DNA of 64,000 bases, from the IMG/VR virus record IMGVR_UViG_3300021387_001083, positions 1 through 64,000 of that record. One strand, 5' to 3'. This DNA is from a virus (lineage: Duplodnaviria; Caudoviricetes). Of the stretch, positions 1,112 through 36,883 are shown in pieces (positions within the stretch are counted from its first letter, which is position 1; the number at the start of each line of letters is the position of its first letter). The notes beneath the pieces were generated by a model. It was given only the letters and a program-made list of their open reading frames with translations. It was not told where the DNA came from and did no database searches. Made by a program: the position numbers and the translations under genes.

Positions 1112-4100
1112 ATGGCTGAAAATACATTAGATGTCAGGTTGTTACATGCAGCTAAGACTTTAGATGACTGGAATAATATAACAACCATTCCTAAACTTGG
1201 TGAAGTCTGCCTTGAAATTCAAGGCAATACTCCACCTTTAAATTATAAAATTAAAATCGGTGATGGTTCTTCAACTTATGCTGCATTACCTTATTTTGGT
1301 ACTGTAGTCAACACTAGTGGTAATGCTAGTGTAGTAGTTGTTGATACAATTACTGATGGTAGTGTTACTAGAAAAGTTCTTAAATTCTATAAATTTACTC
1401 TTACTACAAGTACCGTTAACGGTGTAACCACTATCACCCCTACCATTGGTGATTTAATATTGACTGTGCAAGAAGGTGATGGTATTAATTTTTCTACTAA
1501 TACCACAGATACTTTGGTAAATGTTGAACTTGAAGCTACAACTGCTGATACAGCACAGACTATTGCTGATGGTGGCACTTTTACAACTATTACTAAGGAC
1601 TCTAATAATAGAGCTACTAAATATACTACATTTACATTACCTTCAATTACTAGTAAAATTAATGCCCTTGATGTAGCAGATAACACTGTTATTACAGCCG
1701 AATGGGATAGTACAAATAAACAAATAAAGCTTTATTATGTAAAAGAAACTGATGGTATAATTCAAAAAGGCTCTTTAGCTTATACTATCAATGCCACAGA
1801 TATAGCTCCTGTACAGAATATAACTACAACAGATACTGGTAATAGTGGTTTAGACATTACTATTAGCAACAATGTCAAAGATGTACATCATAAAGCTGTT
1901 ACCCAAAATATCATTGATAATTCGAGTATTGTTGGAGAAAAGGAACTTAACGTTATTACAAATGTTGAAGTTGATTCTTATGGTCATATTACTGGATATA
2001 CTAAAGACAAGTCTACTAATCTTGTAGCAGCTGATATTAAAGCACCAGTTAGACAATCAGACAATTCGATGTGGAACCACCGAGTGACAGGTGGAACTAT
2101 TAACATAGGCGAGGAAACAGCAAAGATTAGTAAATTGAGAGGTAATACTTTGGTGTGGAATCAATTGTTAGGTGAAGGCACTTTTGTCGATATGGGTCTT
2201 CCTAGTGGTAACCTTTGGGCTACATCCAATATTGATGTTACTCAACCTAATAAGTTTGCTGCAAGTCCATTTCAATATGAAGGTTCATTCTTTTCTTATG
2301 GTAATATTGAAGGACACAATCCTATCAGTACTTCTGCTTTTGACTATAACTGGGGCAGTGTTAATAGTCAAGAACCTTGGTATGATGGACAGCCTTACGG
2401 AGATACTGTTGGTGCAGGACTAACTACTAATATACCTGTGGGAGAGACCTATGATGCTGCCCGAGCAAATCTTGGGGCACCGTGGTATACGCCTCAGTCT
2501 GCGGATTTTCAAGAACTGGTTAATAATTGTATTTTTATTAATGCTGATGGTGTTGAAATTCCATCAGATACAACAGATAAAAGAGTGACCGTGAACGGCA
2601 TTGTCGGCCTCTACTTGCAGAGCAAGACCAACGGCAACCGCCTCTTCTTTGCTTGCTCCGGCCACGGCAATGGTACGTCTTGGAACTACCGCGGCTCGTA
2701 CGGCTACTACTGGTCTGCTTCGTTCAACTCCGCTCGCAATGCCCGGAGCTTGGGCTTATACAGCAGTGGTGTCTATCCGCAGGACAACGGCAGTCGGTAC
2801 GTCGGGTTCGCCGTCAGGGCAATAGCCAAAACAAGTGATACAATTATCACAGACCCTAACGGACACAAATACTATGTCAAGAACAAGCAGAATGTTTTTG
2901 ATTTGACCAAGATGTTCGGTGCTGGCAACGAGCCTACTACTGTTGCAGAATTTGAGTCAATGTTCCCTAATTCCTACTATTCATACAACGAAGGTGAGTT
3001 GATTAGTCTGAAACCTACTGGTGTTAAAAGTGTTGGATTTAACCAGTGGGATGAGGAATGGGAGAATGGATATTATTTTTCTAGTACAGGCGCGAAAATG
3101 CCAAGTAGTACACGCATTCGGAGTAAAAATAGCATTGCAGTTTTACCAAATACTCAATATTTTTGCAATCAGCCGATTGAAGAAGGATTAAATATCTGCT
3201 TCTACGATTCAAATGATAATTTTTTGAGTGGCAAGATGGTTTGGAATGTTCAATCATTCACAACTCCAGAAAATGCAAAAAGTCTTCGCTTTTATTTTTC
3301 AGATGTATATGGTTCTGTCTACAATCACGACATCTGCATCAACCTCTCTGACCCTAACCGTAATGGTACTTACGAGCCTTACAAAGAGTCTACTTTGGAT
3401 TTGAGTTGGATTAAATCTATAAAGGACACAGGTGGTAATCTGCTATTTCCTGATGGTGAACTTCACAGTGCAGGCAATATGTATGACGAGGTAGGGGATA
3501 GTTATGCAGTAAAAAGAGTCGGAAGTAGAAATTATACCTCGACAGATGATGATGATAGCACTGTAATTACTGACGGTACTACAACATATTATCCTTTGGC
3601 AGAGCCTGTTACAATCTACTTCGATAAGAAGCCTATGACATATCCTGTCGATGACTTGGGTACTGAAACATTGCTTCCCGAGGGTGTTGACAGCACTACT
3701 GGTGTTCCTTTGAGTGCTCCTTTCAATGGAACTTTTGAGTACAAGAGTAACTTTAAAGATACTGTATTAGACCTTATAAATAAAGTAAATAATGCTAGAA
3801 ATCCTGTTAAAGGTGTTACTAATACTAATCAAACTGTTGATAAATTAGCTATATATGACAGTGTTGAAACAGTCAAATCGAGTAACTATAGTCCTAGTAA
3901 TGCCACTATTGTTGAAGGTGCTACAGATAATGGCATTATTCTTCCTTCTGTAGAGACTATTGTTAATTATGTCAATAGTAAATTATCAAGTGCATTAACA
4001 TACAAAGGTACAATATCCCAATGGTCTGACTTGCCTACAAGTGGCCAAAGTGTAGGTGATATGTATATTGCAGACACTACATTTACTGAAGATGATGTTA

Positions 4101-4984
4101 CATATCAAGCAGGAGATTTCTTTATATGGAATGGTACTGATTGGGATATTGTATCAGGTACCACAAGTGTTGTAAACAGTAATCCTACTCTTACACCTAA
4201 CGGTAATACATATCAAGTAGGTACTGTTGATGGTAGACCTTTACAAGTGACTACTCCTAATCTTAATTATCCCAGCAGTCCTATTTCTTCAGTTGGTCAA
4301 TCTATTGACTTTATAGATACTGTAAGTCAAACTAACGGTTTAGTTAATGCTACAAAGAAAGCCATTCCTTCCGCTAGGACTATAGTAAATGGTACTAATT
4401 ACGATATATTAGTACCGCTGAGTGCATCTTTATGGTCTTCAATATATGCTCCTACTACTGCTGGCACAAATGGGCAATTTTTAAAATCTACAGCAGGTAC
4501 ACCAATATGGGCTACTTTAGGTATTGGCGATTTAGGTTTATATTCTAAAAACTTAAAACAGAACCTTAATGGTCAAGATATTAATCTAGGTAATATTATC
4601 CGTAATTCTAATGAGGATTTAAATTTACCTGCATTTTATGCACCATTAAATGCTGGTACTGCTTATAATTTGTTAATATCAAATGGTAGTGGCGCTCCAA
4701 GTTGGACTACTTTTCTTTCCACTGACAATGGTTATCTTAAAAAAACTGCTAACGGTGGATGGTCTTTAGACCCTTATGGAGGAGGTGCTAAAGAATCAGT
4801 AATGAATGATGGTTCAGTAATTACTGCTTCTTCTTCAGCTACAGCAGGTCTTAGAAAACAAACTGGAACCAATACTTATGAATATCAGAAGATTTCTTTT
4901 GCTGCTATTACTAATGATACTACAACTGATCCTACAACTGGTAACAACGCTGTAACAATAATACTTAATGGTAATTTTAATTAA
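1112..4984 (+). CDS. Tail fibre / receptor-binding protein with an N-terminal Mtd_N-like domain and an internal C-type-lectin-fold (Fib_succ_major/DUF1566-like) DGR-target-type domain
   Basis: 1290 aa, Thr/Asn/Ser-rich. The N-terminal motif W...IPKLGEVCLE...KIKIGDGSSTYAALPY is Mtd_N-like. An internal domain at 2183-2824 runs VDMGLPSGNLWA...GYYWSAS...RYVGFAVRAI, typical of Bacteroidota DGR target domains. Confidence 0.75.
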   Translation: MAENTLDVRLLHAAKTLDDWNNITTIPKLGEVCLEIQGNTPPLNYKIKIGDGSSTYAALPYFGTVVNTSGNASVVVVDTITDGSVTRKVLKFYKFTLTTSTVNGVTTITPTIGDLILTVQEGDGINFSTNTTDTLVNVELEATTADTAQTIADGGTFTTITKDSNNRATKYTTFTLPSITSKINALDVADNTVITAEWDSTNKQIKLYYVKETDGIIQKGSLAYTINATDIAPVQNITTTDTGNSGLDITISNNVKDVHHKAVTQNIIDNSSIVGEKELNVITNVEVDSYGHITGYTKDKSTNLVAADIKAPVRQSDNSMWNHRVTGGTINIGEETAKISKLRGNTLVWNQLLGEGTFVDMGLPSGNLWATSNIDVTQPNKFAASPFQYEGSFFSYGNIEGHNPISTSAFDYNWGSVNSQEPWYDGQPYGDTVGAGLTTNIPVGETYDAARANLGAPWYTPQSADFQELVNNCIFINADGVEIPSDTTDKRVTVNGIVGLYLQSKTNGNRLFFACSGHGNGTSWNYRGSYGYYWSASFNSARNARSLGLYSSGVYPQDNGSRYVGFAVRAIAKTSDTIITDPNGHKYYVKNKQNVFDLTKMFGAGNEPTTVAEFESMFPNSYYSYNEGELISLKPTGVKSVGFNQWDEEWENGYYFSSTGAKMPSSTRIRSKNSIAVLPNTQYFCNQPIEEGLNICFYDSNDNFLSGKMVWNVQSFTTPENAKSLRFYFSDVYGSVYNHDICINLSDPNRNGTYEPYKESTLDLSWIKSIKDTGGNLLFPDGELHSAGNMYDEVGDSYAVKRVGSRNYTSTDDDDSTVITDGTTTYYPLAEPVTIYFDKKPMTYPVDDLGTETLLPEGVDSTTGVPLSAPFNGTFEYKSNFKDTVLDLINKVNNARNPVKGVTNTNQTVDKLAIYDSVETVKSSNYSPSNATIVEGATDNGIILPSVETIVNYVNSKLSSALTYKGTISQWSDLPTSGQSVGDMYIADTTFTEDDVTYQAGDFFIWNGTDWDIVSGTTSVVNSNPTLTPNGNTYQVGTVDGRPLQVTTPNLNYPSSPISSVGQSIDFIDTVSQTNGLVNATKKAIPSARTIVNGTNYDILVPLSASLWSSIYAPTTAGTNGQFLKSTAGTPIWATLGIGDLGLYSKNLKQNLNGQDINLGNIIRNSNEDLNLPAFYAPLNAGTAYNLLISNGSGAPSWTTFLSTDNGYLKKTANGGWSLDPYGGGAKESVMNDGSVITASSSATAGLRKQTGTNTYEYQKISFAAITNDTTTDPTTGNNAVTIILNGNFN
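2585..2827 (+). other. DGR variable-region (VR)-like, GC-rich segment inside the tail fibre gene
   Basis: Hand count gives 142/240 G+C (about 59%) for 2581-2820 versus 15/60 (25%) in the preceding 60 nt. Codons at the expected variable positions are NNC/NNT (cac, tac, agc, ggc, tat, gac, agt, gtc), and the segment ends in the GF(A/S)VR motif. Confidence 0.7.
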
Positions 4985-4986
4985 TT

Positions 4987-5682
4987 ATGTCTGAAAATAT
5001 TTTATATGCAAGATTACAACACGCTGTAGAACATACTGAGGATAATACTCAAGTGCCAGCTAATGCATCAGTGCCACTAAATGGAGAGATTGTGTTTAAT
5101 AGTGACAGGACTAACTTTAAAGTTGGCAGTGGTACTACTGAATACAGTAGTTTATCTTATATTTTACCTGAGATACCCGAAAGATGTGTAATTATCACAC
5201 CATCAAGTAATAGTCATTTAACTAATTTGTACAACAACAGTTTTTTGACAAATCCAAACGCAACAAAATTCTCAGTTTTTGAACCAGGTGGAACGATAAG
5301 ATTAATACCTGATTATGTTACAAGTGATAGTATACAATTCTTTATGTTGAATTTAAGTGTTTTAAATTCTAACTTAATAAATGATGTGGAATACACTTTT
5401 GATTTTAATATACAACCAAATAACAATTCACCGGTATCAAATCCTGATAATGTATTTTTTGTCTGTACAAATACGGACCAATATCAGTATATATTAAATT
5501 ATACAGATTGGGGTAATGAAGTTACTCATACATTTAATGATATAGTTTTTCGTGGATTTCAAAAGCCAACCATTTACCCTTCATCGCCATTTAGTTATTT
5601 ACGATGTCAGTGTGTTAAAATTAAGAAACATACTGTTATTATATCAGGTAATATAGAAGTGACTTATTTTTTTATTTATTAA
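4987..5682 (+). CDS. Tail-fibre-type protein with an Mtd_N-like N-terminus
   Basis: 231 aa. The N-terminus LYARLQHA...VPLNGEIVFNSDRTNFKVGSGTTEYSSLSY parallels the N-terminus of 1112..4984. Confidence 0.55.
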   Translation: MSENILYARLQHAVEHTEDNTQVPANASVPLNGEIVFNSDRTNFKVGSGTTEYSSLSYILPEIPERCVIITPSSNSHLTNLYNNSFLTNPNATKFSVFEPGGTIRLIPDYVTSDSIQFFMLNLSVLNSNLINDVEYTFDFNIQPNNNSPVSNPDNVFFVCTNTDQYQYILNYTDWGNEVTHTFNDIVFRGFQKPTIYPSSPFSYLRCQCVKIKKHTVIISGNIEVTYFFIY

Positions 5683-5693
5683 TAATATAAATC

Positions 5694-7412
5694 ATGGCAA
5701 TAAAGAAAAGATTAACAGGACAAGACTTTTGTGATTGTCTTCCTTGTGAAGAAAGAAAACAAACAATTTATCCTTATGCTTTATTTGACACTGTTGTTAT
5801 AGATGATACATCAAATTCAAATTTATATGATTGGCTGTTTAAAGATCTTAATGGCGAATATCTTGATATAACTGATTCTCTATTGGATTTTCTTACAAAA
5901 TATTGGGCTCAAACAAACCCATTTAATCTGCCTATAGCGTCACCAAATACTCTCGGTGGTATAAAGGTAGGCAACAATCTTTCTATAACAGCAGATGGCG
6001 TTTTAAATGCAACAAATACAACTTACGATATATTTGGTAGTAATGCGGGTTTAGTGCCAGCAAGTAATAGTTCTACAAAATTTTTAAGAAGCGATGGTAC
6101 ATGGCAAAATATAGAATTTTCCAATATACCTATAGCTACAAATGATACACTTGGAGGAGTTATAGTAGACGATACGTATCTCACAATAAATTCTAATGGT
6201 TTGCTTGGTTTAAACATCAATGCGTTATCGATACCGGATTTTACAATAACCAATCTTTCGGATAATGGTTTATTGTTAGGCACTATAATTACAGGAGGAA
6301 ATTATAATATTAAAGTTCCCTATGCTTCTGCAGATACTTTCGGTGTTGTGAAAGCTGGTAGAAATATAATAATAACAGATGGTATTATATCAGTGGACAT
6401 AGGTACTATTATAGGAAGTATAAGTCTAGATAACGATGTTATTTTACCAATAATAGATAACAATGTAAATATTCCTGTATTTCAACCAAGTACTGATATA
6501 AATCATGGTGTTGCTGGTTTAGTTCCTGCTCCAACGATGTATTTATTGCCGTCAAACGAATATTATTTGAAAGCTAGTGGCCGTTGGGATAAATTACATG
6601 CAACATACGTAAACGATGATACAAATCATACTACGCCAGTACCTGAAATAGGAGCTGTAAGAATCGGAAGCTCTCCAGGCATATCCAGTGAAAACGTGAC
6701 TTATGCCTGTTGGCGAGACAGTAATAAGCCAATACATCAAGACGGACGTATTTTGAAAAGTGATTGGTTTGTTGTTAATCCTCCACAAAGAGAACCAAAC
6801 AGATATTATGCTATTGAAGTTGACAGTGCGGGAGTACCATTTGTCAATGTTCCTTGGGGTAGTATTGAAGAAATAAATGTTGCTACACAAGAATCTTTAG
6901 GAGGTATAAAGATTGGGTTTGTTACGGATGAATCAGGAAGAGATTACGCTGTTGAACTGGATTCAGAAACAAAAAAAGCATATGTGCATGTTCCATGGTC
7001 TAGTAGTGGAATAAGTATTGCTACAGACAATGTTATTGGTGGTTTTAAAACTGGATATACACAAACTGGTAAAAATTATCCTGTACAAATATCTGATGGC
7101 AAGGCTTATGTAAGCGTTCCTTGGGCATCATATAATGTTGTTACATCTTCTTATGATGGCTTAATGAGTAGTGCTGATAAAATTAAACTTAATGGTATAT
7201 CGAATGGTGCTCAACAAAACGTAATAGAGAAAATATTGGTCAACGGCACTGAAATCAGGTCAGAATCAAAAATTGTAAATATTGAAAGTTACGTATTGAT
7301 GAATTCAGAAGACTTATATAAATTCTTCGAAGAAATTCCTGAAGAAGGTGTATATGAAGCTAAGGTAGAAGGTTATTATTTAGTAAATACAGAATTAGTT
7401 AAAAAAGAATAA
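5694..7412 (+). CDS. Tail fibre/spike-like protein with repeated IAxxxTLGG(I/V)K(V/I)G motifs
   Basis: 572 aa with five copies of the LGG-type fibre repeat and three Y(A/P)(V/I)x..(Y/F)VxVPW repeats. Confidence 0.6.
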   Translation: MAIKKRLTGQDFCDCLPCEERKQTIYPYALFDTVVIDDTSNSNLYDWLFKDLNGEYLDITDSLLDFLTKYWAQTNPFNLPIASPNTLGGIKVGNNLSITADGVLNATNTTYDIFGSNAGLVPASNSSTKFLRSDGTWQNIEFSNIPIATNDTLGGVIVDDTYLTINSNGLLGLNINALSIPDFTITNLSDNGLLLGTIITGGNYNIKVPYASADTFGVVKAGRNIIITDGIISVDIGTIIGSISLDNDVILPIIDNNVNIPVFQPSTDINHGVAGLVPAPTMYLLPSNEYYLKASGRWDKLHATYVNDDTNHTTPVPEIGAVRIGSSPGISSENVTYACWRDSNKPIHQDGRILKSDWFVVNPPQREPNRYYAIEVDSAGVPFVNVPWGSIEEINVATQESLGGIKIGFVTDESGRDYAVELDSETKKAYVHVPWSSSGISIATDNVIGGFKTGYTQTGKNYPVQISDGKAYVSVPWASYNVVTSSYDGLMSSADKIKLNGISNGAQQNVIEKILVNGTEIRSESKIVNIESYVLMNSEDLYKFFEEIPEEGVYEAKVEGYYLVNTELVKKE

Positions 7413-7801
7413 TGATGAAAAAGTTATTTCTCTTTTTAATACCGTTCATCATAGTTAGCTGTAAGACAGTAGAAAAAGTTGTGGAAGTTCCTGTGGAGGT
7501 TGTTAAAACTGAATATAAAGATGTTTATCACCACGATTCTATTTTTCAAAAGGAATATGTGAACGTTTACGTCAAAGGAGATACTGTTTTTAAAGACAGT
7601 ATTGTTACAAAATATAAGGAAAAACAAGTTCATGATACGCTTATAACTCATGATACAATTCCTAAAGTAGTACCAATGGAAAAAATTGTTGAAAAAAAAG
7701 TTCCTCAATGGTGGCCTGTATGGTTAATGTTAATATTAGGTATTGTAGTCGGTATGTTTTTCTTATTAAAAAATACATTTGAAAAAATTAAACAAAAATG
7801 A
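7412..7801 (+). CDS. Lipoprotein with C-terminal transmembrane helix; candidate unimolecular spanin
   Basis: Signal peptide II/lipobox MMKKLFLFLIPFIIVS-C, a beta-rich middle (VEVPVEVVKTEY...DTVFKDSIV), and a C-terminal TM helix WWPVWLMLILGIVVGMFFLL followed by basic residues. Confidence 0.6.
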   Translation: MMKKLFLFLIPFIIVSCKTVEKVVEVPVEVVKTEYKDVYHHDSIFQKEYVNVYVKGDTVFKDSIVTKYKEKQVHDTLITHDTIPKVVPMEKIVEKKVPQWWPVWLMLILGIVVGMFFLLKNTFEKIKQK

Positions 7802-8305: not shown

Positions 8306-8588
8306 TAAAATACATTCAGGGAATTGCAATATGAGTGAAGTGCAATTTGAAAGGGCTATAAAAGCATTGCGTCCTTATACATTATATGATCCATATGTTA
8401 CTGCTTATAAAGCATATACATATTTAGGTGTATGTCCTAAAACATTTAAAACATTAATTGATAAAGGTGAAATTCCTCAAGGTGTTAAGGAATCTGGTTA
8501 TTCTACACTTAGATGGCTTAAAACTGACATCTTGGAATACAGCAAAAAATCCGGAAAAATAAATAAACACGGATTTACTTTAGATTAA
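8265..8588 (+). CDS. Helix-turn-helix DNA-binding protein (excisionase/AlpA/HTH_17-like)
   Basis: The C-terminal half TAYKAYTYLGVCPKTFKTLIDKGEIPQG...LRWLKTDI matches the MerR/Xis-type winged HTH pattern. Confidence 0.6.
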   Translation: MQEILENILTAILDKIHSGNCNMSEVQFERAIKALRPYTLYDPYVTAYKAYTYLGVCPKTFKTLIDKGEIPQGVKESGYSTLRWLKTDILEYSKKSGKINKHGFTLD

Positions 8589-13319: not shown

Positions 13320-14861
13320 ATGGGTCAATTAAATCATTATTTACCGAGACCTGGTTTTACCATGGGTCCTGGTGTATCTAAGATTAAGCACGTTGCAGAA
13401 ATCTTTGGCAAGGCTCCTGTACAAATGAGTGATATAGTAACCAGAATGTTCACTGCTAACAATGGTTGGCTGTTTAGTACATTTCTGAGAGACTTTACTC
13501 AGGAAAGAGTTTTTGACACTGATGATGAGTATACGTGGAAACTTATTGGTTCTACTTACAAAAATATTCCTTTACTTGAAGCAAGAGATGAAGATGGTGC
13601 TGTCATTACCAATGATGGTCAGAATTATGGTAAAGGCGGTGCTATCATACAGCTTGTGTTTCCGGAGAACTATTTCGCCGATGGTGAAGTCCTCGTAGGA
13701 GAGCTTAACGAGTATTATCAATTTAGAATTCTCGGTGATCCTACAATGGAAGGAAATACTGCAGTCTATACTTGTGAACTTATGTATGGTCAAGAGACTG
13801 GTTGCCCTGCAGAACGTCTTCAGCCTGGTGAAAGATTCAGTTGGGAATATGCTCCTGTGGAGAACGAACTCAGTAGAAAAGTGGGCGGCATAAGAAAGGC
13901 TGTTCCTACTTCGATGAGAAATGAATGGACTACTATTCGTAAGTACAACAAGTTTACTGGTGCTGCTGACAGACAGCAAAAACTTGATGTCAGTATTCCT
14001 CTTATTAGAATCAATGCACAAGGTAAAGAAGAGAAAACAGTTATTAATTCATGGTTCTCTAATGAAGAGTGGATCTTCATGCAGGAGTGGGAGCGTGAGA
14101 AAGAGAGAGCAAGACTTTATTCGAGAAGCAACCGTAATTCTAACGGTGCTTATATGAACTTTGGTAAATCTGGTAATGCCATACGTGTAGGTGATGGCCT
14201 TTTTGCACAGATGCTGTATGGTAACACCAGTTTCTACAACAACTATGGTTCTAATTTCTCGATCAAAGGGCTTGCAAATGCTGTTTACAATATTTGTGAA
14301 CAGGGTAATGTTCCTATGGACCAGCGTAACTTTGTCGTTCTGACTGGTCAGAGAGGTATGATTCAGGTTAACGAGGCAATCCGCAAGGAGACCAATGGTT
14401 GGTCTGCTCCGTTCACTTTCAATGGTGACAATCTCGGTATCATCGAGAAGACCTCGAATCCTGCTCATCAGACTTCGTTGGCTTATGGTGCACAGTTTAC
14501 TGAGTGGCGTGGTCCTAACGGTCTTGTTTTGAAATTCATTGTTGATCCTTCGTTGGACGACAGAGAGAGAAACAAGATTCCTGGTCCGAATAATCAAGGT
14601 GTTTTAAGTTCGTATGCTTATTACATTTTTGATCTTGGCACTTCGAGTGAACCTAACATGTTCCTCTGCAAACTTAGAAATGCAGATGACACTTTCAAAT
14701 ATCGTATCGGCATAAGAAATCCGTGGGGTATAACTAACAATAACATAATCAATTACGATGAAGATAGTGCAGAGATTCACGTAATGACTACGTTAGGTGC
14801 TTTAATTCTGGATCCTACCAGATGTCTGGCTTATCTACCTTCTGGTATGGTTCCTGCTTAA
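13320..14861 (+). CDS. Major capsid protein (crAss-like, HK97 fold)
   Basis: 513 aa. crAss-MCP-like motifs include DEYTWKLIG, VFPENYFADGEVLVGELNE.YQFRILGDP, RFSWEYAPVE.ELSRKVG and GDGLFAQM. Codon bias suggests high expression, and a terminator follows. Confidence 0.85.
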   Translation: MGQLNHYLPRPGFTMGPGVSKIKHVAEIFGKAPVQMSDIVTRMFTANNGWLFSTFLRDFTQERVFDTDDEYTWKLIGSTYKNIPLLEARDEDGAVITNDGQNYGKGGAIIQLVFPENYFADGEVLVGELNEYYQFRILGDPTMEGNTAVYTCELMYGQETGCPAERLQPGERFSWEYAPVENELSRKVGGIRKAVPTSMRNEWTTIRKYNKFTGAADRQQKLDVSIPLIRINAQGKEEKTVINSWFSNEEWIFMQEWEREKERARLYSRSNRNSNGAYMNFGKSGNAIRVGDGLFAQMLYGNTSFYNNYGSNFSIKGLANAVYNICEQGNVPMDQRNFVVLTGQRGMIQVNEAIRKETNGWSAPFTFNGDNLGIIEKTSNPAHQTSLAYGAQFTEWRGPNGLVLKFIVDPSLDDRERNKIPGPNNQGVLSSYAYYIFDLGTSSEPNMFLCKLRNADDTFKYRIGIRNPWGITNNNIINYDEDSAEIHVMTTLGALILDPTRCLAYLPSGMVPA

Positions 14862-28153: not shown

Positions 28154-31100
28154 ATGGCAACATTAACAGGTTTAAATACACAACAAGGGCAAAACAGAGA
28201 GGCTGGTCGAGTAAATGGTCAGCCTCTTCCTGATAACCCTACTATTAAAAATATAAGACCTATTACATTTGGTGAAGCTCAACAAATGATGTGGTCTCCT
28301 AGAGGAATTAAAAATCTTACAACTATAGAGCTTCCTGAAGATTATGGTGAAAGCCGTTTCGATAAACGTGCGTGGGCACCAAGTCAACTTTACGATTTAA
28401 ATGAACTTCGAGCACAAGAACAGACTGGTGCTGAAAAACTTTTTAACGGTATAGCAAAAGGTGCTGTGTTATTTGGCACTACATTTGTTACAGGTGTTGC
28501 AGAACTGCCTGTTGCTTTAGCTACTTCTTTGGAGCGAGGTGATTGGTCAGGTATGTGGGATAATGCTATCACACAAATGGCGTATGATGTGAGTCAGTCT
28601 GTTGAAAATGTACTTCCGAATTATTATACCAGCAGAGAACAAACAGATCCCTGGTATCAACATATATGGTCTGCTAATTTTATAGGTGACAAATTTCTTA
28701 AGAATCTTGGTTTTACTGCTGGTGCTATAGCTTCATCTGCAGTTACAAACAATTGGATGAATGCCTTAAAAATACCACAAGTAATGGCAACTATTCTAAG
28801 AAGTCAAAAAGCTGGCCGTTTTGCTTCAGCAGCCATAGGATCAGCATTGCAGGCTTATACTGAATCTTCTATTGAAGCCAAACAAGGTATGGAAGATTTT
28901 GTAAAGACAAAAGGACAATTGCTTGATGCTGAACACGAAAGAAGACTTCAAGAAATAGAAATGATGTTTCCCCTTCAAGGCGAAAATGTCGTTAATGTCA
29001 ATACAGACAAACAAGCTTTAATAGATGAAGAAAACCAAGCTTATGTCAATGCAAAAACAAGACTTGCTATGGATTCTTCTAAAGTCGGTAATTTTGTTTT
29101 AAGAAATGAAATGCCTTTGCTGTTTGCATCAAGCCTTTTTCAGTTTGGCAGAATGTATGCAAATGGTTTTGGCACAGCAAGACATATAAACAATGCTGTA
29201 AGAAAATCTGCAACAGAATATGGACTTAGAAATATTCCTGGGGCTGGTTTAGCTAAAGGTGTTGGTAATGCTTTTATGGAGGGTTCTGAAGAATTCAATC
29301 AATCAATGATACAGAACATTGCGGCAAACTATTATAAAGAAGACGTTGATAATTTCTATAACGCTTCTTTGGATCCAACATTAACTGAAAATACGGTGGA
29401 TTTTATGCGTTCTGCTGGCAGAAGTATTTCCGATACATGGAATGATTCGTCAGCTTGGGAAGAAGGCTTTATAGGGGCTCTTACAGGCGGTTTGGGTATG
29501 GTTCGTATAGGCAAGAATGCTCAGAACGCTGATGTAAAACTCGGTAAAATCGGTCTTGATGGTGGCATCATCGGTGATATAGCACAAGCCAGAAAAGAAC
29601 GTGTAAGACAGCAAAATATAATAGATCAGGTAAATAGTATACTTGGCAGTAAGAAAATATCAGCTATGGTCAGAGGTGCAAACAGAAACCAAATGGAACA
29701 AAACCGTATGGATTTCGCAGCTATGCAAGGTGATGCAAAAACTTTTAAGGATGCTGAATTTTCGCAAATGATCTCTGATATAATAACTATTGACCAAGTA
29801 GACGGTTTGCAGGATTATAAAGCTATGATATCTTCTGTATTGTCTGATGAGGCTTTAGCAGATCCAAAATATTTACAAGATTTGATACAAAGCACCGAAA
29901 AGGATATCAATGGCAAAAAAGAAGGCCCTTTTGCAGGTATGGATAATGCTGAAATTGTTGAAAGACTCAAAAAGACTCGAGAGACTCTTTTGGATGCTGT
30001 AGACAAATACAAAAAGATAAAAGACAAAATAGACATCAATACTGAAGGTGTTTTCTCTGAGGAACAACTTGGTACGCTTACGTGGATGAGAGCTAAGCTT
30101 GCCAACTGGGATGAACGTCAGAAAACAATGACTGGTGAACTTGTAGAAGATCTTAAAAAGCTTAAAGATGTTGCGGATAAGAAGAATCTGGAAATCCCCG
30201 AACTTGTTGTCAAAGAGATGGGTAAAGTGGACGCTGCTCAGATGGCTTCTGATATTCTTGCAGCAAGTATCAGTGAACAAGGACTTAAATCCATACCGCT
30301 TAGTGGAACTATAGATGATCTTATTAATAGCATAAGTAATTTAAAAACAAGGGCTGGTTCGTTTTTTGATGCCGACGTAGATGTCAAAAACAATGTAAAA
30401 GTACACGATGCTTTAGCCAATTGGATTAACTCTGTAGGCGTCATTATGGGTGCGGACACTACTGTTGACATAAAAGAGACTATTCAAAAAATGAAAGATC
30501 TTGCTGCAATCCATGAAGATGTTGTGAAATATAATATACAGCTTGCTGATTATCTTGAACATCCTGAAAGACTTGCTGAGGATATGTCTAAACAAGAAAA
30601 GAAAGCCGCTAAAAAACAACGTAAAAAAGAAAACAAAAAGACTGTTGACGCTTATAATAATGCCGATACTAAAGAAGACAAGGATGAAGTTTATGACAAC
30701 GCTGATGACAGTGGAAAAGCAGCTATAGACAAAGACCACAAGAATGATCCTGAATATCAATTTGATAAACATAAAAAAGAGTTTAGAGATGCTGTTGCAA
30801 AATCAATTGATGAGCAAGATGACATTGATGGTAGTGTTAAGGCTGCTGCAAAAGAAGCATATGACGCTGTTGTTGAAAATACGAATACCAGTAATTCAGA
30901 CAATTTATATTATCCTTATAGAGCATTGGCAGAATATAGGGAACCGCTTCGTACAGACATAGCATTGAGTGGTGATGATAATGCTATTGCAGAATTTGAT
31001 ACTCAAAACAATTGGGTGGATTTTGTTATTGATAGAGCAATACATAAAATATATGACAGTAACAATTTCAAGGATTCATTTAGAACTTACGAAGCACCTG

Positions 31101-34100
31101 CCAGTGCAGTACAACCTGCAAGAGATGATGTTTATGTAAGAATGAACGATCCTGCTGAACAAGCTCCTGCTACAAAACTTGGGACCGACTTGCCTGAAAA
31201 TGAGTTAGATACTCCAATTGCTCCAATATCTTCTGAGTCTTTGAAAGAAGCCAATGAAGTTCCTCCGACTACAACTGAACAAACCCCTGGTAACAGCGGT
31301 GACAAGAAAAGAACCTTAATGAACACTATTCCTTTCTATGACCCGGAAGCAAAGAAAAAACAAGACTACAGACCTTTCTGGGAAGTTGATATGGAAAGAG
31401 AACTGCAGGGTTTAAGGATGTCAGATGAAGCTGTAAAGACTTATATTGACAATATAAAATCTACAGGCTGGAAACATATTCCTCCTACAGAGACTCCCGA
31501 ATATATAGCTACAATAACACCAACTGAAGAAAATATAAACAATGGCACTTATAGAGGTTATTATGATATATGGAATTTCCTTGAAGAGCACGGTGCATTT
31601 AGATATGTAGATCAAGGTTTACTTGAACATGGAGACAAAATACAATTTGCAAAAGTACCAAGTATTTCTGACAATGTGTTGTTCTTCGTAAAGAAATTAA
31701 ACGATGATTCTTTTCAAATAATAGGAGTGGTATCTGCAAGAAACGATGTTATCGGTATACAAGAGCTTAGAAATATATTGAAAAATTCTAAATCAAGTAA
31801 CATAGGTATTCAATATAAAACAAACGATGGTTCTGTATCTACTGAAAAACGTAATGAGGTTGTTGATGTATACGATGTTGAAACTACTGTTATGGACATT
31901 TATAACGGTAACGTGCCTATTATCGATGAAGAAAGATCCTTAAAGGATATACCTAATGGTAGAGATGTTAAAATAGCTGTCATAAAAAATGGTTCATTTA
32001 CTGGTCAAGATATTGAAGGACTTCCTATAGAACCTGTCAATACAACCAATATGGAAGGCTATATTGTTGCTTTAGTTCCTACTGCAGCAAATACTTATTT
32101 TCCTGTTACTTTAAGAACAGCACCTGTTTCACAGACTTTATTTACTGACGACAATGAGTTTGCTAAAGAAATTCAAGAAACTGTAAAAGAACTTAATAAA
32201 GCAACAACTGTAGAAGTTGCTAGTAATCTAATGGTAGAGTTAAGAAAATCGTTGTATTTTGATGATGATTTAAAATATGAATATTATTTTAGAGACTCTA
32301 AAGGTGTTACACACCAAACGAAAGACAAAAACGATACTATTACAACGATAGGTTTTGGTAGTAAGAAACAAGATGCTGAAAACAATAGGATAAGAGAAGA
32401 AAATAAGAATCGTCCTGAAGATCAACAAGTACCTACCAAAAGTTCAATGGAATATGTAGATATTGATCGACATGACGAAACTAGTTTAAAAAAACTACAG
32501 GAATATATATTAAGTAAAGTTGTATATTATAATGTTACACCAAGAAATCTTAACGACCCGAAATACAACAACAAACTTATAAACAGCGATATTTTAACTA
32601 CTAACGTCGAAAGCCTTGAAGTTAGAAGCAGTTGGTTTGGTGCAAACTATTATGATCCAAATACAAAAAAGTTTGTACAAGCTGTGAGATTTCCGTCACC
32701 AATAAGAGGACAAGCTACACCTGTTGGTGGTGTTAATAATGAAAATCTTAAAGTCGTCATAAAAGGTAAAAACAACAAAGGCACAAATTTTACTTGGTAT
32801 GTCGATGAAACTAATGGTAAAAGAATATATTATCGTAAATCAGCAGATTCTAAAGATTTTAAGTTAATTAATGATAATGGAGCTATTAATAACTTAAATA
32901 ATGTTTTATATATTAAAAGACGATTCATACCACAGGAAGTAGAACGTTTTAAAACAGACGATAAAATTGATAGAGCTGGCCTTTCAAAACGTTATTCTAA
33001 TTACATATATTTTCAAGATCAAAACGACAAAAATATTTTTCATGACTATTATGTGTATCCCAGATTTGGAAATGAATATGGTATTTTTAAAATTGATCTT
33101 AATAATCCAGACAATATATCGTTTATTATTAGACAAAATAACTCTGACGAATATACAAATGTTTTGCAACAATATCTAGCCAAACGTTATATTCCTAAAC
33201 AAGAAGCTGTTAAAGAAGTTGCTAAACCTACTGTTGGCGTATCTAAAGATATCGGTACATCATTAGCTGAAAATTGGAATGGTAGAGTCGATATAGATAA
33301 AACTGAAGATGCTGATGATGTATTAAAAAGTTTAAATATTAAACTCAATCCAGAACCAATCACACTATTTTGGTATTCTAAAAAAGATATAGTGACAAAA
33401 ACTAAAGGTTATAAACTGCCAGGTAAGGATTTGTTTGTTGTTTTTGATGATAAAACTAATTTTGTCGTAAATGAAAATCAATCGGGTGATCTTAATGTAG
33501 CTTCATACAGAATTATTTCAAAAAATGGTTATTCTATACGCAAACAAGATGTAGATAAGCGAGATATCAAGATAACGCCCACATCTATTGAACGTATGCT
33601 TAGAAAAATAAGCGAAGATCTTACAGAAAACCAAGAAAAAATACTTAATGGTTATGAAGGTTTAAATAAAATCGTTCAAACTGTTACTCCATTACCTACA
33701 GAAACTGAACAATACACTAAAGTAAAAGATGTTTTAAAGACTAATTCTGAGCGTTTCAAAAATGAAAAAGGAGAAGTCAACAGAACATCCGGTCAGTATC
33801 AAACTAAAGATGGAGAATTATATTTAAGATTCCATGCTTTATCTGATAAAGGAAATGGTAGTTTTGAAACACCTTCCGATAAAGTAGAAAGTATTCCTCC
33901 AAATGAGCCAATAAAAAGAGGTATTGCATTTGATACTTTTATGAGGGAATACCTTTCTTCGAAAGATTTTGACAAAGCAAAGGTTGAACTTGGCAAACTT
34001 GTTTCTGCTGATAAAGATTATACTTTAAGTGATGAAGAACTTAATAATATAAAGACTTTTGTTGAAGAACAGCTTAAAGATTATAATATTATATCAAAAG

Positions 34101-36883
34101 ATCTTATTGTTTCAGGTACTTTCAATAACTTGCGTATCGCTGGTGAAATGGATTGCATTCTTGAAAAAGATGGTAGATTTTATATAGTTGATTTTAAAGC
34201 TAGTAAAAATGATCCATCAAAAGATGCATTTTACAAAACACAGCTAGCGTTCTATAAAGAAGCTTTACGTCAAATTCTTTCTGAAAATAATATAAATGAT
34301 GTGCCTATAGAAACTCTCGGTTTTATATGGTTATCTTCTACTTCGAAAAATGTATCATTAAAAACCACAGGTGATCTTGCGTTAAATCAACAAGTGTTAG
34401 GACCTTGGGCTGTTACTAAAGATGGTGTAACTCAATCTGTTGCAAACACTTATAATTGGGATGCTAGAATAAATAAGAAATATAACATAGAGGCTGATAA
34501 CAATACTGGCACTGTTATTAAAACAGAATCTGACGATGAAGGCATTGACTTTGATGATGACACTGATTCTGGTATGTTTAATTTAAATAATATGCCAGCC
34601 AGCAATGAAAGAAACAAACTTGTATCTGATGAATCTAGTTATACTGCTGCAGATATCAACAAAGAAGTTGAATGGATAAATCAAGTTTTACCACAACTTT
34701 CAAGGAATGAACAACTCATGATTGTTGATGGTCTTATAAAAACATCTAAACGTGGTGTTTATGCTTATGGCCAGCTTAAAAACAATGTTATAAAATTGTC
34801 AAGACAAGGCGTCAGAGGTATTGGTTTCCACGAAGTATTTCATTATATGTTTAATCTTGTTTTGAGTAATGAAGAACAAAATGAAATCTTCAGAGAAGCT
34901 TCTAAGAAATGGAACAATATTACCAATCCTATAGATTTAGAAGAAAAACTTGCAGACGCTTTTCAAGATTATGCTATCGACCAAGTTTATGGTGGCAGAG
35001 GTATTTTACCGGCAATGAAAAGATTCTTTAACAAACTTCTCTTGTGGATAAAACATGGTAAGACTATTGTACAACAGATGGACAATCTTTATAAAGACTT
35101 GAATGCTGGCAGATATATTGATGCTGAGGAACATCCTTTTGAAGGCGTTCGTTATCAAAAATATACATTTGAAATGCAACAAATAAAAGACCAAGCTATT
35201 GCTAATGGTACTTTTATGAAAGCTCCTAATGGTAAACCTACTAATCTTAATGAAAGACAATGGTTACAAGTTAGAACTAAAGCTTTTAAAAAATGGTTTG
35301 GCGATTGGGAAAGTGTTGCTGCTAGAATAGCTAATGCTAAAGTTATTTGGGGTCATCCTGGTATAGGTAAAACAGAATACTATAAAAATAACAAAAATGT
35401 TATAGATTTTGATAGTGTTTATAAACCTAGAATCAATAAAGAATTAGGACTTCCTGAAGGTGCTGAAGAACGTAAAAAATGGAGACGTGAGCATAGAGAT
35501 GAATATAGGCAAAAGATTCTTTCTTTATTTGATGAGGCTGTAGAGGATGCTAAGAAGCAGGGTAAACAACTATTAGTATCTGATATGGTTGTATTACAAG
35601 AAAGAGAAGATACTTTAGACCTTATTACTCAAATGTCTGAAGATACTTTTGCTAAAAGAAGCATGCAACGTAATGAACCTTATGATGATAATAGAAAACT
35701 TTGGAAAACTGATATAGACGAAAGTATATCTAAAGTATATGATAAATCTAAAGTAGTTAATACAGAAAAGTATCTTTCTGAACTTTATGAAGATGCTAAA
35801 AATGTTTCTAAAGTAGTAGATGAAAATGGTGAACCTTTAGTAGTTTATCATGGTACAACAGTTCCATTTACAACTTTTGATAAATCTAAACAAAATAGTA
35901 GATTTCCTTTTGGTTTAGGTACAAATGCTTTTTATTTTACTTCTAAAAAAGAAAATGCTGAAAAAATAGCTATAGGTGTTCATAAAGGAGATTTTCTTAT
36001 AAATAGTAAACCTTTATATAGCTCAGAATATCCTTGGGGGAATCCAAAATATATTAGTGAAGTTGTTGGATATAAAGTTGCTTCTGATTTTAAAAGTTTG
36101 ATAGAAGGTGCAAAAGATTTGTATTCAAAAGAGGTAATAGAAGACTATTTTAATAAAATAAATAAACCTAATACTACTATTCAAGAAATACAAGAAAGTT
36201 CTGATAACGTTATGGCTGTATTTTTAAATATAAAAAATATGGACATAAAAGATTACGAAGGAAAGAATCTTATGGATACTTCTTCAAAAGAATTTGATTC
36301 TTTTGTAAATAATAGTAAAGAAGGTGGTAAATTAGCTAATGTTAAAGATGGTAATATGAAATTAGCTGATACTTATTTTGTTAAAGAACCAAATCAAATT
36401 AAATCAGCTACTGATAATGTAGGTACTTTTGATCCAAACAATCCTGATATCAGATATTCTTTAGTCGATGATGTAGATCATGTAGGAAGACCTTTAACAC
36501 CAAAAGCTTATCAACCTATGATTGATAATATGGTAAACAATCTGCAATATGGTACAGATACCAATATTGATAATCAGTGGGGTTTGTTTGTTGATGATTA
36601 CTTTAGAAAATTCGGCATTGTAATTACTGGTCATAAAGTTAGAGGCAAATACAAAGTTGACAGTGTCACAAGAGGTTTTGTAGCACCTGAAGCAACTTCA
36701 ATTCAAAATGAAGATGGCACGATTAAATCTTTAAAAGAACTTAAAAATTCATCTGAATTTAGAAATGATTGGAACAATCTAACTGAATGGCAACAAACAG
36801 CTCTTGAAAATTCAGGTATGAATGAAGAGTTTTGGATAACTCTACCTAACGACATCAGAGATAACATATTACATTGCTTATAA
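28154..36883 (+). CDS. Giant virion cargo/polyvalent protein: N-terminal hydrophobic ejection region, PD-(D/E)XK nuclease-like, zincin HExxH, P-loop and ART-PolyVal-like domains
   Basis: 2909 aa. Motifs: IAGEMDCILE...IVDFKAS...QLAFY (about 33900-34350); GFHEVFH...EEKLADAF (34829-34962); GHPGIGKT (35351-35374); SKVVDENGEPLVVYHGT...FYFT...NQIKSATDN.GTFD.NNPDIRYS (35792-36460). Confidence 0.75.
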   Translation: MATLTGLNTQQGQNREAGRVNGQPLPDNPTIKNIRPITFGEAQQMMWSPRGIKNLTTIELPEDYGESRFDKRAWAPSQLYDLNELRAQEQTGAEKLFNGIAKGAVLFGTTFVTGVAELPVALATSLERGDWSGMWDNAITQMAYDVSQSVENVLPNYYTSREQTDPWYQHIWSANFIGDKFLKNLGFTAGAIASSAVTNNWMNALKIPQVMATILRSQKAGRFASAAIGSALQAYTESSIEAKQGMEDFVKTKGQLLDAEHERRLQEIEMMFPLQGENVVNVNTDKQALIDEENQAYVNAKTRLAMDSSKVGNFVLRNEMPLLFASSLFQFGRMYANGFGTARHINNAVRKSATEYGLRNIPGAGLAKGVGNAFMEGSEEFNQSMIQNIAANYYKEDVDNFYNASLDPTLTENTVDFMRSAGRSISDTWNDSSAWEEGFIGALTGGLGMVRIGKNAQNADVKLGKIGLDGGIIGDIAQARKERVRQQNIIDQVNSILGSKKISAMVRGANRNQMEQNRMDFAAMQGDAKTFKDAEFSQMISDIITIDQVDGLQDYKAMISSVLSDEALADPKYLQDLIQSTEKDINGKKEGPFAGMDNAEIVERLKKTRETLLDAVDKYKKIKDKIDINTEGVFSEEQLGTLTWMRAKLANWDERQKTMTGELVEDLKKLKDVADKKNLEIPELVVKEMGKVDAAQMASDILAASISEQGLKSIPLSGTIDDLINSISNLKTRAGSFFDADVDVKNNVKVHDALANWINSVGVIMGADTTVDIKETIQKMKDLAAIHEDVVKYNIQLADYLEHPERLAEDMSKQEKKAAKKQRKKENKKTVDAYNNADTKEDKDEVYDNADDSGKAAIDKDHKNDPEYQFDKHKKEFRDAVAKSIDEQDDIDGSVKAAAKEAYDAVVENTNTSNSDNLYYPYRALAEYREPLRTDIALSGDDNAIAEFDTQNNWVDFVIDRAIHKIYDSNNFKDSFRTYEAPASAVQPARDDVYVRMNDPAEQAPATKLGTDLPENELDTPIAPISSESLKEANEVPPTTTEQTPGNSGDKKRTLMNTIPFYDPEAKKKQDYRPFWEVDMERELQGLRMSDEAVKTYIDNIKSTGWKHIPPTETPEYIATITPTEENINNGTYRGYYDIWNFLEEHGAFRYVDQGLLEHGDKIQFAKVPSISDNVLFFVKKLNDDSFQIIGVVSARNDVIGIQELRNILKNSKSSNIGIQYKTNDGSVSTEKRNEVVDVYDVETTVMDIYNGNVPIIDEERSLKDIPNGRDVKIAVIKNGSFTGQDIEGLPIEPVNTTNMEGYIVALVPTAANTYFPVTLRTAPVSQTLFTDDNEFAKEIQETVKELNKATTVEVASNLMVELRKSLYFDDDLKYEYYFRDSKGVTHQTKDKNDTITTIGFGSKKQDAENNRIREENKNRPEDQQVPTKSSMEYVDIDRHDETSLKKLQEYILSKVVYYNVTPRNLNDPKYNNKLINSDILTTNVESLEVRSSWFGANYYDPNTKKFVQAVRFPSPIRGQATPVGGVNNENLKVVIKGKNNKGTNFTWYVDETNGKRIYYRKSADSKDFKLINDNGAINNLNNVLYIKRRFIPQEVERFKTDDKIDRAGLSKRYSNYIYFQDQNDKNIFHDYYVYPRFGNEYGIFKIDLNNPDNISFIIRQNNSDEYTNVLQQYLAKRYIPKQEAVKEVAKPTVGVSKDIGTSLAENWNGRVDIDKTEDADDVLKSLNIKLNPEPITLFWYSKKDIVTKTKGYKLPGKDLFVVFDDKTNFVVNENQSGDLNVASYRIISKNGYSIRKQDVDKRDIKITPTSIERMLRKISEDLTENQEKILNGYEGLNKIVQTVTPLPTETEQYTKVKDVLKTNSERFKNEKGEVNRTSGQYQTKDGELYLRFHALSDKGNGSFETPSDKVESIPPNEPIKRGIAFDTFMREYLSSKDFDKAKVELGKLVSADKDYTLSDEELNNIKTFVEEQLKDYNIISKDLIVSGTFNNLRIAGEMDCILEKDGRFYIVDFKASKNDPSKDAFYKTQLAFYKEALRQILSENNINDVPIETLGFIWLSSTSKNVSLKTTGDLALNQQVLGPWAVTKDGVTQSVANTYNWDARINKKYNIEADNNTGTVIKTESDDEGIDFDDDTDSGMFNLNNMPASNERNKLVSDESSYTAADINKEVEWINQVLPQLSRNEQLMIVDGLIKTSKRGVYAYGQLKNNVIKLSRQGVRGIGFHEVFHYMFNLVLSNEEQNEIFREASKKWNNITNPIDLEEKLADAFQDYAIDQVYGGRGILPAMKRFFNKLLLWIKHGKTIVQQMDNLYKDLNAGRYIDAEEHPFEGVRYQKYTFEMQQIKDQAIANGTFMKAPNGKPTNLNERQWLQVRTKAFKKWFGDWESVAARIANAKVIWGHPGIGKTEYYKNNKNVIDFDSVYKPRINKELGLPEGAEERKKWRREHRDEYRQKILSLFDEAVEDAKKQGKQLLVSDMVVLQEREDTLDLITQMSEDTFAKRSMQRNEPYDDNRKLWKTDIDESISKVYDKSKVVNTEKYLSELYEDAKNVSKVVDENGEPLVVYHGTTVPFTTFDKSKQNSRFPFGLGTNAFYFTSKKENAEKIAIGVHKGDFLINSKPLYSSEYPWGNPKYISEVVGYKVASDFKSLIEGAKDLYSKEVIEDYFNKINKPNTTIQEIQESSDNVMAVFLNIKNMDIKDYEGKNLMDTSSKEFDSFVNNSKEGGKLANVKDGNMKLADTYFVKEPNQIKSATDNVGTFDPNNPDIRYSLVDDVDHVGRPLTPKAYQPMIDNMVNNLQYGTDTNIDNQWGLFVDDYFRKFGIVITGHKVRGKYKVDSVTRGFVAPEATSIQNEDGTIKSLKELKNSSEFRNDWNNLTEWQQTALENSGMNEEFWITLPNDIRDNILHCL

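Follow-up and report, generated by a model that had tools for sequence, protein, structure and literature searches.

A variable region of diversity-generating retroelement type in a rumen crAss-like phage fibre gene and its probable capture from a higher-GC phage

The window analysed here is the first 64 kb (64,000 nucleotides) of the IMG/VR record IMGVR_UViG_3300021387_001083, a linear record of 84,633 bp to which CheckV gives a completeness of 84%, and which derives from an AT-rich (33% GC) crAss-like phage of rumen origin. Its tail-fibre gene, P0001 (1112-4984, + strand; 1290 aa according to the open reading frame (ORF) list and its translation), encodes a lectin-like domain in mid-protein, and this domain contains a GC-rich patch with a variable region (VR) of the kind written by diversity-generating retroelements (DGRs). 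The phage is an orphan in this respect: about 98.6 kb of sequence contain the VR and no DGR of the phage's own, that is, neither a template repeat (TR) nor a reverse transcriptase (RT). The patch was probably captured by recombination from a higher-GC phage bearing a DGR, after which the VR would have become static.

A DGR-written variable region without its retroelement

Scanning JGI metagenomes with a pattern of the non-variable bases of the window lineage recovered L041, a separate contig of 3,456 bp and 53% GC that bears both a VR and a TR. The order of its elements, a target ORF whose VR is C-terminal, a 182-aa ORF, the TR and the RT (RVT_1, E=1e-10, motifs IGNLTSQ and YVDD), is that of a canonical DGR, and its own VR differs from its TR at 16 adenines and at no other base. 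When compared with the L041 TR over 166 bases, the variable region proper of the window (2642-2812, + strand, aa 511-567) is mismatched at 15 of the 39 adenines and at only 2 of the 127 other bases (Fisher p=3e-9), these two changes being C-to-A and G-to-A. Because the mismatches to a real TR, lying beside a DGR-type RT on that other contig, are adenine-specific, the sequence comparison identifies the patch as containing a true DGR-written VR. The initial annotation, made from the letters of the window, had called a DGR variable-region cassette and derived a TR-like peptide by back-substitution; the TR-like homologue with adenine-specific mismatches has now been found, and the peptide is nearly identical to the translation of the L041 TR.

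The same pattern is found in the relatives of the fibre domain. In L006, L008, L010, G007, G008 and L041, a target with a C-terminal VR is followed by TR and RT within about 2 kb, and cognate TR/VR mismatches fall at TR adenines in 21/22, 14/17, 10/10 and 16/16 cases. The TRs of G007 and G008 align to 2642-2814 of the window (positions 58-230 of a 2585-2830 query). A DNA alignment of nine related IMG/VR loci shows invariant bases among hypervariable codons in the last ~180 nt of the domain.

Several of these relatives have peculiarities of their own. G007 is a complete 75.6-kb genome with terminal repeats in which one DGR has two targets (RT 6275-6850, TR 7261-7433 and VR 8306-8535, all on the - strand; second VR 75311-75480, + strand), the second target lying at the opposite end of the linear record, a few kb off across the terminal repeat. 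L040/G006 (56% GC) carries a target gene and VR of L041 type (88.6% identity); its similarity to L041 breaks inside the hairpin that follows the VR (about 1393-1440 in L040/G006 against 1085-1127 in L041), no TR or RT is found in its 30.6 kb, and it looks like an orphan produced by deletion or replacement of the DGR core. The first 340 nt of L039 (Ga0326513_10102240, 1-340) combine the upstream flank of a TR, VR-like mutated codons and the downstream flank of a VR, and are either a TR/VR assembly chimera or a rearranged copy. In-frame insertions of 3 nt relative to the TRs are seen in the L010 VR (CTT, about 725-1000) and in L123 (GAC or similar, about 1000-1210), and in L123 scaffold residues that are otherwise invariant are replaced as well (W to R in YWS, F to V in GF.VR).

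In the window, the VR is contained in a GC-rich recombinant patch of 235 bases (2584-2818, + strand; 59% GC), delimited by its composition and by a step in identity to the L041 target gene. The stretch 2581-2820 holds 142 G+C in 240 nt (59.2%), against 15 in the 60 nt before it (25%), and is the GC maximum among the 240-nt windows of the whole 84,633-bp record, about 6 standard deviations above their mean (0.330, standard deviation 0.043). The G+C content of third codon positions (GC3) passes from 0.19 (1112-2581) to 0.80 (2582-2818) and returns to 0.23 (2819-4981), all inside the single intact ORF 1112-4984, whose reading frame is unbroken. The counts given in the initial annotation were thus reproduced exactly, and the abrupt mid-gene 5' edge was confirmed; its description of the GC content as foreign to the phage is borne out, and the peptide that it quoted agrees with the translation of the ORF. 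The idea that the GC richness is forced by the amino acid sequence was rejected, as in phage L006, of 41% GC, this scaffold is encoded at 48% GC. Patch and context recur, with an identical VR, in three assemblies including an ENA scaffold (sheep rumen) and a SPAdes contig, and analogous GC-rich patches occur in at least nine other fibre loci. Since patch and context were assembled independently and similar patches exist in other phage contigs, an assembly artefact is unlikely.

The orphan status of the VR was examined over the whole 84.6-kb record. No RT was detected by a six-frame RVT_1 search or by tblastn with the L041 RT, and a DNA self-search and blastn at word size 7 with the VR and the L041 TR as queries returned no TR, only the self-match and, at this word size, matches due to chance. 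Contig L048, from a near-identical strain (98.5% identity where the two overlap), extends the sequence by 13.9 kb on the upstream side, in which neither an RT (tblastn, L041 RT) nor a TR (blastn, word size 7) was found, bringing the sequence searched to about 98.6 kb, compared with the roughly 100 kb expected from the CheckV estimate. The absence of TR and RT, first noted for 64 kb, therefore holds for the whole record and for L048, and two parts of an autonomous DGR, the RT gene and the TR, are missing from this sequence. RT and TR are also absent from the records of three phages that share the mid-protein module with flanks 92-98% identical, namely G003 (83 kb, complete, with direct terminal repeats), G002 (171 kb, 94% complete) and G001 (46% complete). 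The lineage pattern, used as a TR search, had no match in the 185,579 representative prokaryote genomes of GTDB. With the lineage-specific VR pattern, scans of IMG/VR gave only sister orphans, and with a junction pattern only the three sister contigs already known.

Origin of the patch and present state of the variable region

The GC-rich tract begins at 2584, 58 nt farther 5' than the TR homology, which begins at about 2642. This 5' part of the patch (2584-2641, + strand) has its counterpart in the donor-type target gene only: 53 of its 58 nt are identical to the L041 target gene upstream of the VR, against 17 of 58 for the upstream flank of the TR. As a TR cannot template cDNA for sequence that it does not contain, a target gene would be the source of the patch, through DNA-DNA recombination. 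In a codon alignment, nucleotide identity to the target genes of L041 and L040 amounts to 0.38-0.63 upstream of about 2557 and to 0.78-0.92 in the patch, and with the L041 target gene alone it steps from 0.42-0.63 to 0.85-0.92 near 2584. Blastn against the high-GC relative L029 likewise aligns 2584-2814 at 85% identity and returns no match for 2150-2583. The fibre gene is thus a mosaic. Among the origins put forward in the initial annotation, the one with the best support is recombinational capture from an element of higher GC, since the tract enters the target-gene sequence of the donor type and identity changes sharply at its edge.

Sister alleles point in the same direction. The GC-rich start lies about 100 nt further 5' in L002 and L004, and in L004 an L008-like 3' end is joined to an L041-like middle; such differing tract ends fit gene conversion and not homing with fixed ends. 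Judged from these sequence comparisons, DNA recombination is favoured over cDNA homing as the source of the patch. Non-adenine mismatches to the L041 TR (of 127) number 2 in the window, 4 in L002, 9 in L004, 12 in L123 and 26 in L003, making the window, by this measure, the freshest copy among the orphan alleles. Many of the L003 changes are G-to-A or C-to-T, as predicted for decay in a 30%-GC genome.

We consider it probable, then, that the patch was captured from a higher-GC DGR-bearing phage and that its VR is now static. Adenine-specific mutagenic reverse transcription would have written the VR in a phage of the L041/L040 type (about 53-56% GC). Homologous recombination between lectin-like fibre domains could then have copied the VR of the DGR target gene, together with 58 nt of adjoining coding sequence, into the 33%-GC crAss-like phage, probably when both infected one Bacteroidales host of the ruminant gut. 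The receptor-binding loop would most likely be fixed, a product obtained at second hand from the DGR of another phage. The direction of the transfer and its mechanism, the sharing of a host and the present inactivity of the VR are what we infer.

As for this inactivity, the 3' side of the patch is informative. The junction with the downstream fibre extension lies at 2813-2834 (+ strand), where comparison with the L041 VR and TR indicates that the TR-type 3' identity, equivalent to the initiation of mutagenic homing (IMH) region, has been lost. The window diverges from the L041 TR after GGGTTCGC and continues into the ..AIAKTSD.. extension, whereas in L041 the VR/TR identity runs about 16 nt past this point, to the stop codon. 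The terminal VR/TR identity of the IMH region is therefore absent. DNA folding reveals a weak AT-rich inverted repeat of 6 bp (2835-2850, + strand), the region after the VR reaching -10.4 kcal/mol (z -2.6) in the window against -22 kcal/mol (z -6.4) in L041. In the phage BPP-1, a recipient VR requires an intact IMH, an adjacent hairpin or cruciform and some 5' homology (PMC3240598), and by analogy with this model the window VR would not be a competent homing target. It is probably frozen, because the terminal TR identity and a strong downstream hairpin are missing.

Another explanation could be that an ancestor of the phage had a DGR of its own, whose TR and RT were lost in place when the C-terminal extension was fused, leaving the VR as a vertical fossil. 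L040/G006 provides an example of a DGR core deleted directly after the VR, with the break inside the hairpin, incomplete cassettes are common in crAss-like phages (PMC7290462), and the mismatch gradient of 2, 4, 9, 12 and 26 of 127 resembles decay with age. However, a resident TR cannot preserve sequence outside itself, so that the 58 nt beyond the TR homology, which are GC-rich and 91% identical to the target gene of a 53%-GC phage, count against this scenario. The rest of the domain, moreover, has an AT-adapted sequence with an identity of only about 50% to the target gene of L041, and the same module is carried by unrelated phages, crAss-like and tape-measure-bearing, with genome GC of 30 to 45%. 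Loss in place is, in our judgement, unlikely.

Diversification in trans by a DGR of the host or of a prophage had also been proposed from the window alone. It would mean that an L041-like DGR of a co-infecting phage or host prophage still rewrites the VR. At non-adenine sites the L041 TR and the window VR indeed agree to 98%, and the differences among five alleles of near-identical flanks fall mainly in TR-adenine columns; the VRs of the window and L002, for instance, differ at 17 of 38 A columns and at 7 of 118 other columns. Action in trans is also documented, since avd, TR and brt function from a plasmid and at least 8 bp of 5' homology are enough (PMC3240598, PMC5758913), and in G007 a single TR serves two VRs. 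Nevertheless, other sequence stands in place of the last ~16 nt of TR/VR identity, the IMH equivalent, and no strong inverted repeat follows downstream, which disfavours this part of the initial proposal. The GC-rich tract is longer than the TR, the two GC-to-AT non-adenine changes have not been overwritten, the VR is the same in three assemblies, and the lineage pattern finds no TR in the 185,579 representative prokaryote genomes. Continuing diversification in trans thus seems distinctly improbable.

A third suggestion, that the DGR core lies elsewhere in the genome, draws on a linear record only 84% complete, but L048 raises the total searched to about 98.6 of roughly 100 kb with no RT or TR, and in every canonical relative these follow the target at a distance of no more than about 2 kb; a core in an unsequenced part is nearly excluded. 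As to an assembly chimera or a chance composition with no biological patch behind it, conserved domains can produce chimeric metagenome assemblies, but three assemblies, produced by different pipelines, gave the identical sequence, the reading frame is unbroken, at least nine other loci have analogous patches and the mismatch pattern is adenine-specific (p=3e-9), so that we give this idea practically no credence.

Several observations nevertheless weigh against capture followed by stasis. The exact donor is not among the contigs found, L041 being off at 2 non-adenine sites of the VR and at 5 of the 58 nt upstream. The five alleles with near-identical flanks (window, L002, L003, L004 and L123) hold different VRs, which implies repeated recombination or else, at some stage, DGR activity or homing on the mid-protein form. 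In some alleles, lineage-specific sequence comes within a few bases of the shared 3' junction; a 3' crossover would then have little homology to use, and the arrangement would suit the polarity of homing. The homing requirements applied above are known from BPP-1 (PMC3240598) and not from this DGR lineage. The three assemblies with identical VRs may share the same or related sheep-rumen samples and are then weak evidence of a static VR, and about 2 kb of the genome may remain unseen.

The lectin-like domain and the phages that share it

The domain that receives the VR (2150-2836, + strand; residues about 340-575 of P0001) is a putative Fib_succ_major / DUF1566-like receptor-binding domain of C-type lectin (CLec) type, assigned by homology to bona fide DGR target domains. 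Its amino acid identity is 60-87% to nine IMG/VR loci, in several of which a TR and an RT lie in cis, and 58-64% to L006, L008, L010 and L041, where TR and RT (or the TR) are present in cis and the mismatches are adenine-specific. The YWS...GF.VR scaffold is conserved across these relatives. Category 'd' / CLec2 DGR targets comprise DUF1566 and DUF823 as well as Fib_succ_major domains, of the type of Legionella LdtA (Wu et al. 2018, PMC5758913). The window domain is homologous to demonstrable DGR targets, and it likewise gives weak, mixed matches to Fib_succ_major and Lcl_C (DUF1566). It differs from them in being a phage fibre module and not a bacterial surface lipoprotein, and in that its Pfam matches stay below the gathering thresholds: PF09603 (Fib_succ_major) scores E=0.0057 and 17.4 bits, below the cut-off of 33.9. 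Hundreds of homologues are found in public metagenomes, many with precomputed PF09603 or PF07603 assignments.

The CLec fold itself was addressed with an AlphaFold (AF2) model of the domain built from 64 sequences, which reached a mean predicted local distance difference test (pLDDT) score of 64.6, and about 30 in the variable part. A Foldseek search of the PDB with this model returned nothing significant, and a sequence search of the PDB gave chance matches only. The best VIA-align results were TaqVP, Mtd, Lcl_C, an FGE paralogue and TvpA, all weak (Z 2.8-4.3). The fold proposed by the initial annotation is thus weakly supported, by these top-ranked DGR variable proteins and FGE (Z at most 4.3) and by the sub-threshold Fib_succ_major match. 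Taken together, the modelling suggests that a lectin-like fold is likely.

Unlike a canonical DGR target, P0001 does not end with its VR, as an extension of roughly 720 aa is fused downstream. The mid-protein location had been recognized from the start, although the limits then given (aa 518-570) need correction: the TR-homologous part covers aa 511-567 of 1290. Among 114 homologues with the scaffold motif, the domain is C-terminal in 97 and mid-protein in 17. Six further mid-protein loci were inspected within 10 kb and have no TR or RT; in 6/6 the VR-like stretch has 52-63% GC in a locus of 31-48% GC. A survey of 67 IMG/VR loci with the same downstream fibre domain yielded no further mid-protein VR with a TR in cis.

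The carriers of the module are unrelated phages, with locus GC of 30-45%. G002 has a crAss-type capsid gene, whereas G003 has none and encodes a tape-measure protein instead. In L121, a 141-kb contig from Logan (SRR32209734), the mid-protein fibre gene matches a database protein only if TAG is read as Q, and the crAss-type capsid gene of G002 (95194-95946) contains two in-frame TAG codons; stop-codon-recoded phages therefore carry the module as well. The core motif of VR and TR was found in 12 Bacteroidales contigs of metagenome-assembled genomes (GTDB representatives; Bacteroidaceae, Prevotellaceae, Phocaeicola) from sheep, goat, roe deer and reindeer guts, an indication that the family has its host range among Bacteroidales of the ruminant gut. 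These 12 contigs were rejected as close relatives of the VR, their ungapped identity being about 0.53 and out of register.

A broader proposal, which we regard as possible but less than probable, is that unrelated phages devoid of RT (crAss-like, tape-measure-bearing and TAG-recoded) routinely renew their receptor-binding loops with DGR-written cassettes taken from DGR-bearing phages of the same Bacteroidales hosts, by gene conversion or by direct homing in trans. If so, the hypervariation of fibres across a whole phage community would come from a minority of its members, those that carry a DGR, and persistently GC-rich patches in fibre genes of 31-36% GC would be the footprint of this cassette flow.

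Comparison with known systems and gene neighbourhood

Orphan or incomplete DGR cassettes have already been published for crAss-like phages (PMC7290462). In genus-I AlphacrAssvirinae, VRs were found in 80 of 91 genomes, TRs in 30 and complete DGRs in 15 (Morozova et al. 2020, PMC7290462). The incomplete cassettes of that study, which deals with crAssphage LMMB, resemble the present case in that a crAss-like phage has a DGR-type VR in a tail fibre with no TR or RT. The remnants reported there, however, stand at the orthologous locus of close relatives that have a full cassette (a tail-collar fibre between the tail-needle and IHF genes), which suggests loss in place, whereas the window VR is a GC-discordant recombinant patch in mid-protein, its nearest TR is on the separate 53%-GC contig L041, and G006, the nearest relative of the target gene, has no match to a crAss-type capsid. 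The BPP-1 DGR (mtd, avd, TR, brt; Guo et al. 2011, PMC3240598) shares with the window the adenine-specific TR-to-VR differences and the lectin-like fibre domain, and its order of target, TR and RT recurs in L041, L006, L008 and G007; the window differs from it by having no RT, TR, terminal TR identity or strong downstream hairpin, and by a VR that is not C-terminal. Finally, atypical GC has been used as a sign of horizontal DGR movement, about 20% of DGRs deviating by at least 5% (PMC5758913). Here, in contrast, it would be the written VR with a short piece of target gene, and not the retroelement, that moved.

What sets the present case apart is the near-cognate TR on a separate contig of higher GC, the target-gene nature of the transferred tract and the recurring mid-protein layout. 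The usual view is that a DGR mutates only the genome in which it resides. In this phage, the written product and not the machinery seems to have passed from one phage to an unrelated one. Were this a general phenomenon, the host-range diversity generated by a few DGR-positive phages would be shared community-wide through recombination, with consequences for metagenomic estimates of tropism evolution and of DGR prevalence. The combination of a GC3 step with an NNY codon pattern offers a usable detector of orphan VRs, and the nearest TR a lead to phages that share a host.

Judged from its proteins, the phage belongs to a distant rumen crAss-like lineage. The window encodes a crAss-like major capsid protein (13320-14861, + strand) that marks the phage type by its match to the PHROG major head protein (E=7e-81) and shares 47% identity with the IAS virus protein and 45% with those of PhiCrAssBcn phages. 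Contigs overlapping the start of the window place P22_portal and crAss_THA genes directly upstream of it, so that the crAss-type major capsid and tail-hub genes expected of Crassvirales are both present. No nucleotide match to GenBank phages was obtained by blastn with the patch or by megablast with the first 12 kb of the window.

According to the same contigs, P0001 sits just after the portal, crAss_THA and Phage_tail_C genes. The protein has no PHROGs family, and a database look-up for other variants of the VR through the downstream ORF returned only the sheep-rumen ENA scaffold mentioned above. P0001 is followed by another fibre-like ORF (4987-5682, + strand) with which it has an N-terminal anchor sequence in common, as indicated by a direct repeat and a sub-threshold Mtd_N match. 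The repeat (1109-1149 / 4984-5024; 41 nt, 73% identity) means that the two consecutive fibre genes start alike. P0001 had been described as beginning with an Mtd_N-like domain; Pfam detects no Mtd_N on P0001 itself, and such a resemblance is seen in the paralogous N-terminus of the next ORF, below threshold (E=0.074).

Farther along the window, three giant ORFs (28154-36883, + strand; 36970-41178 and 41181-50024, both - strand) of 2909, 1402 and 2947 aa are typical of the virion-packaged proteins of crAss-like phages. Three contigs of the same phage from DRR8550xx runs (L043, L045 and L046) end in the fibre gene, at window positions 1815-2356, short of the VR, and L044 has gaps at 1414-1750 and 2917-3520. 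Assembly breaks thus recur within the fibre gene yet not at the VR, which suggests strain-level mosaicism elsewhere in the gene.

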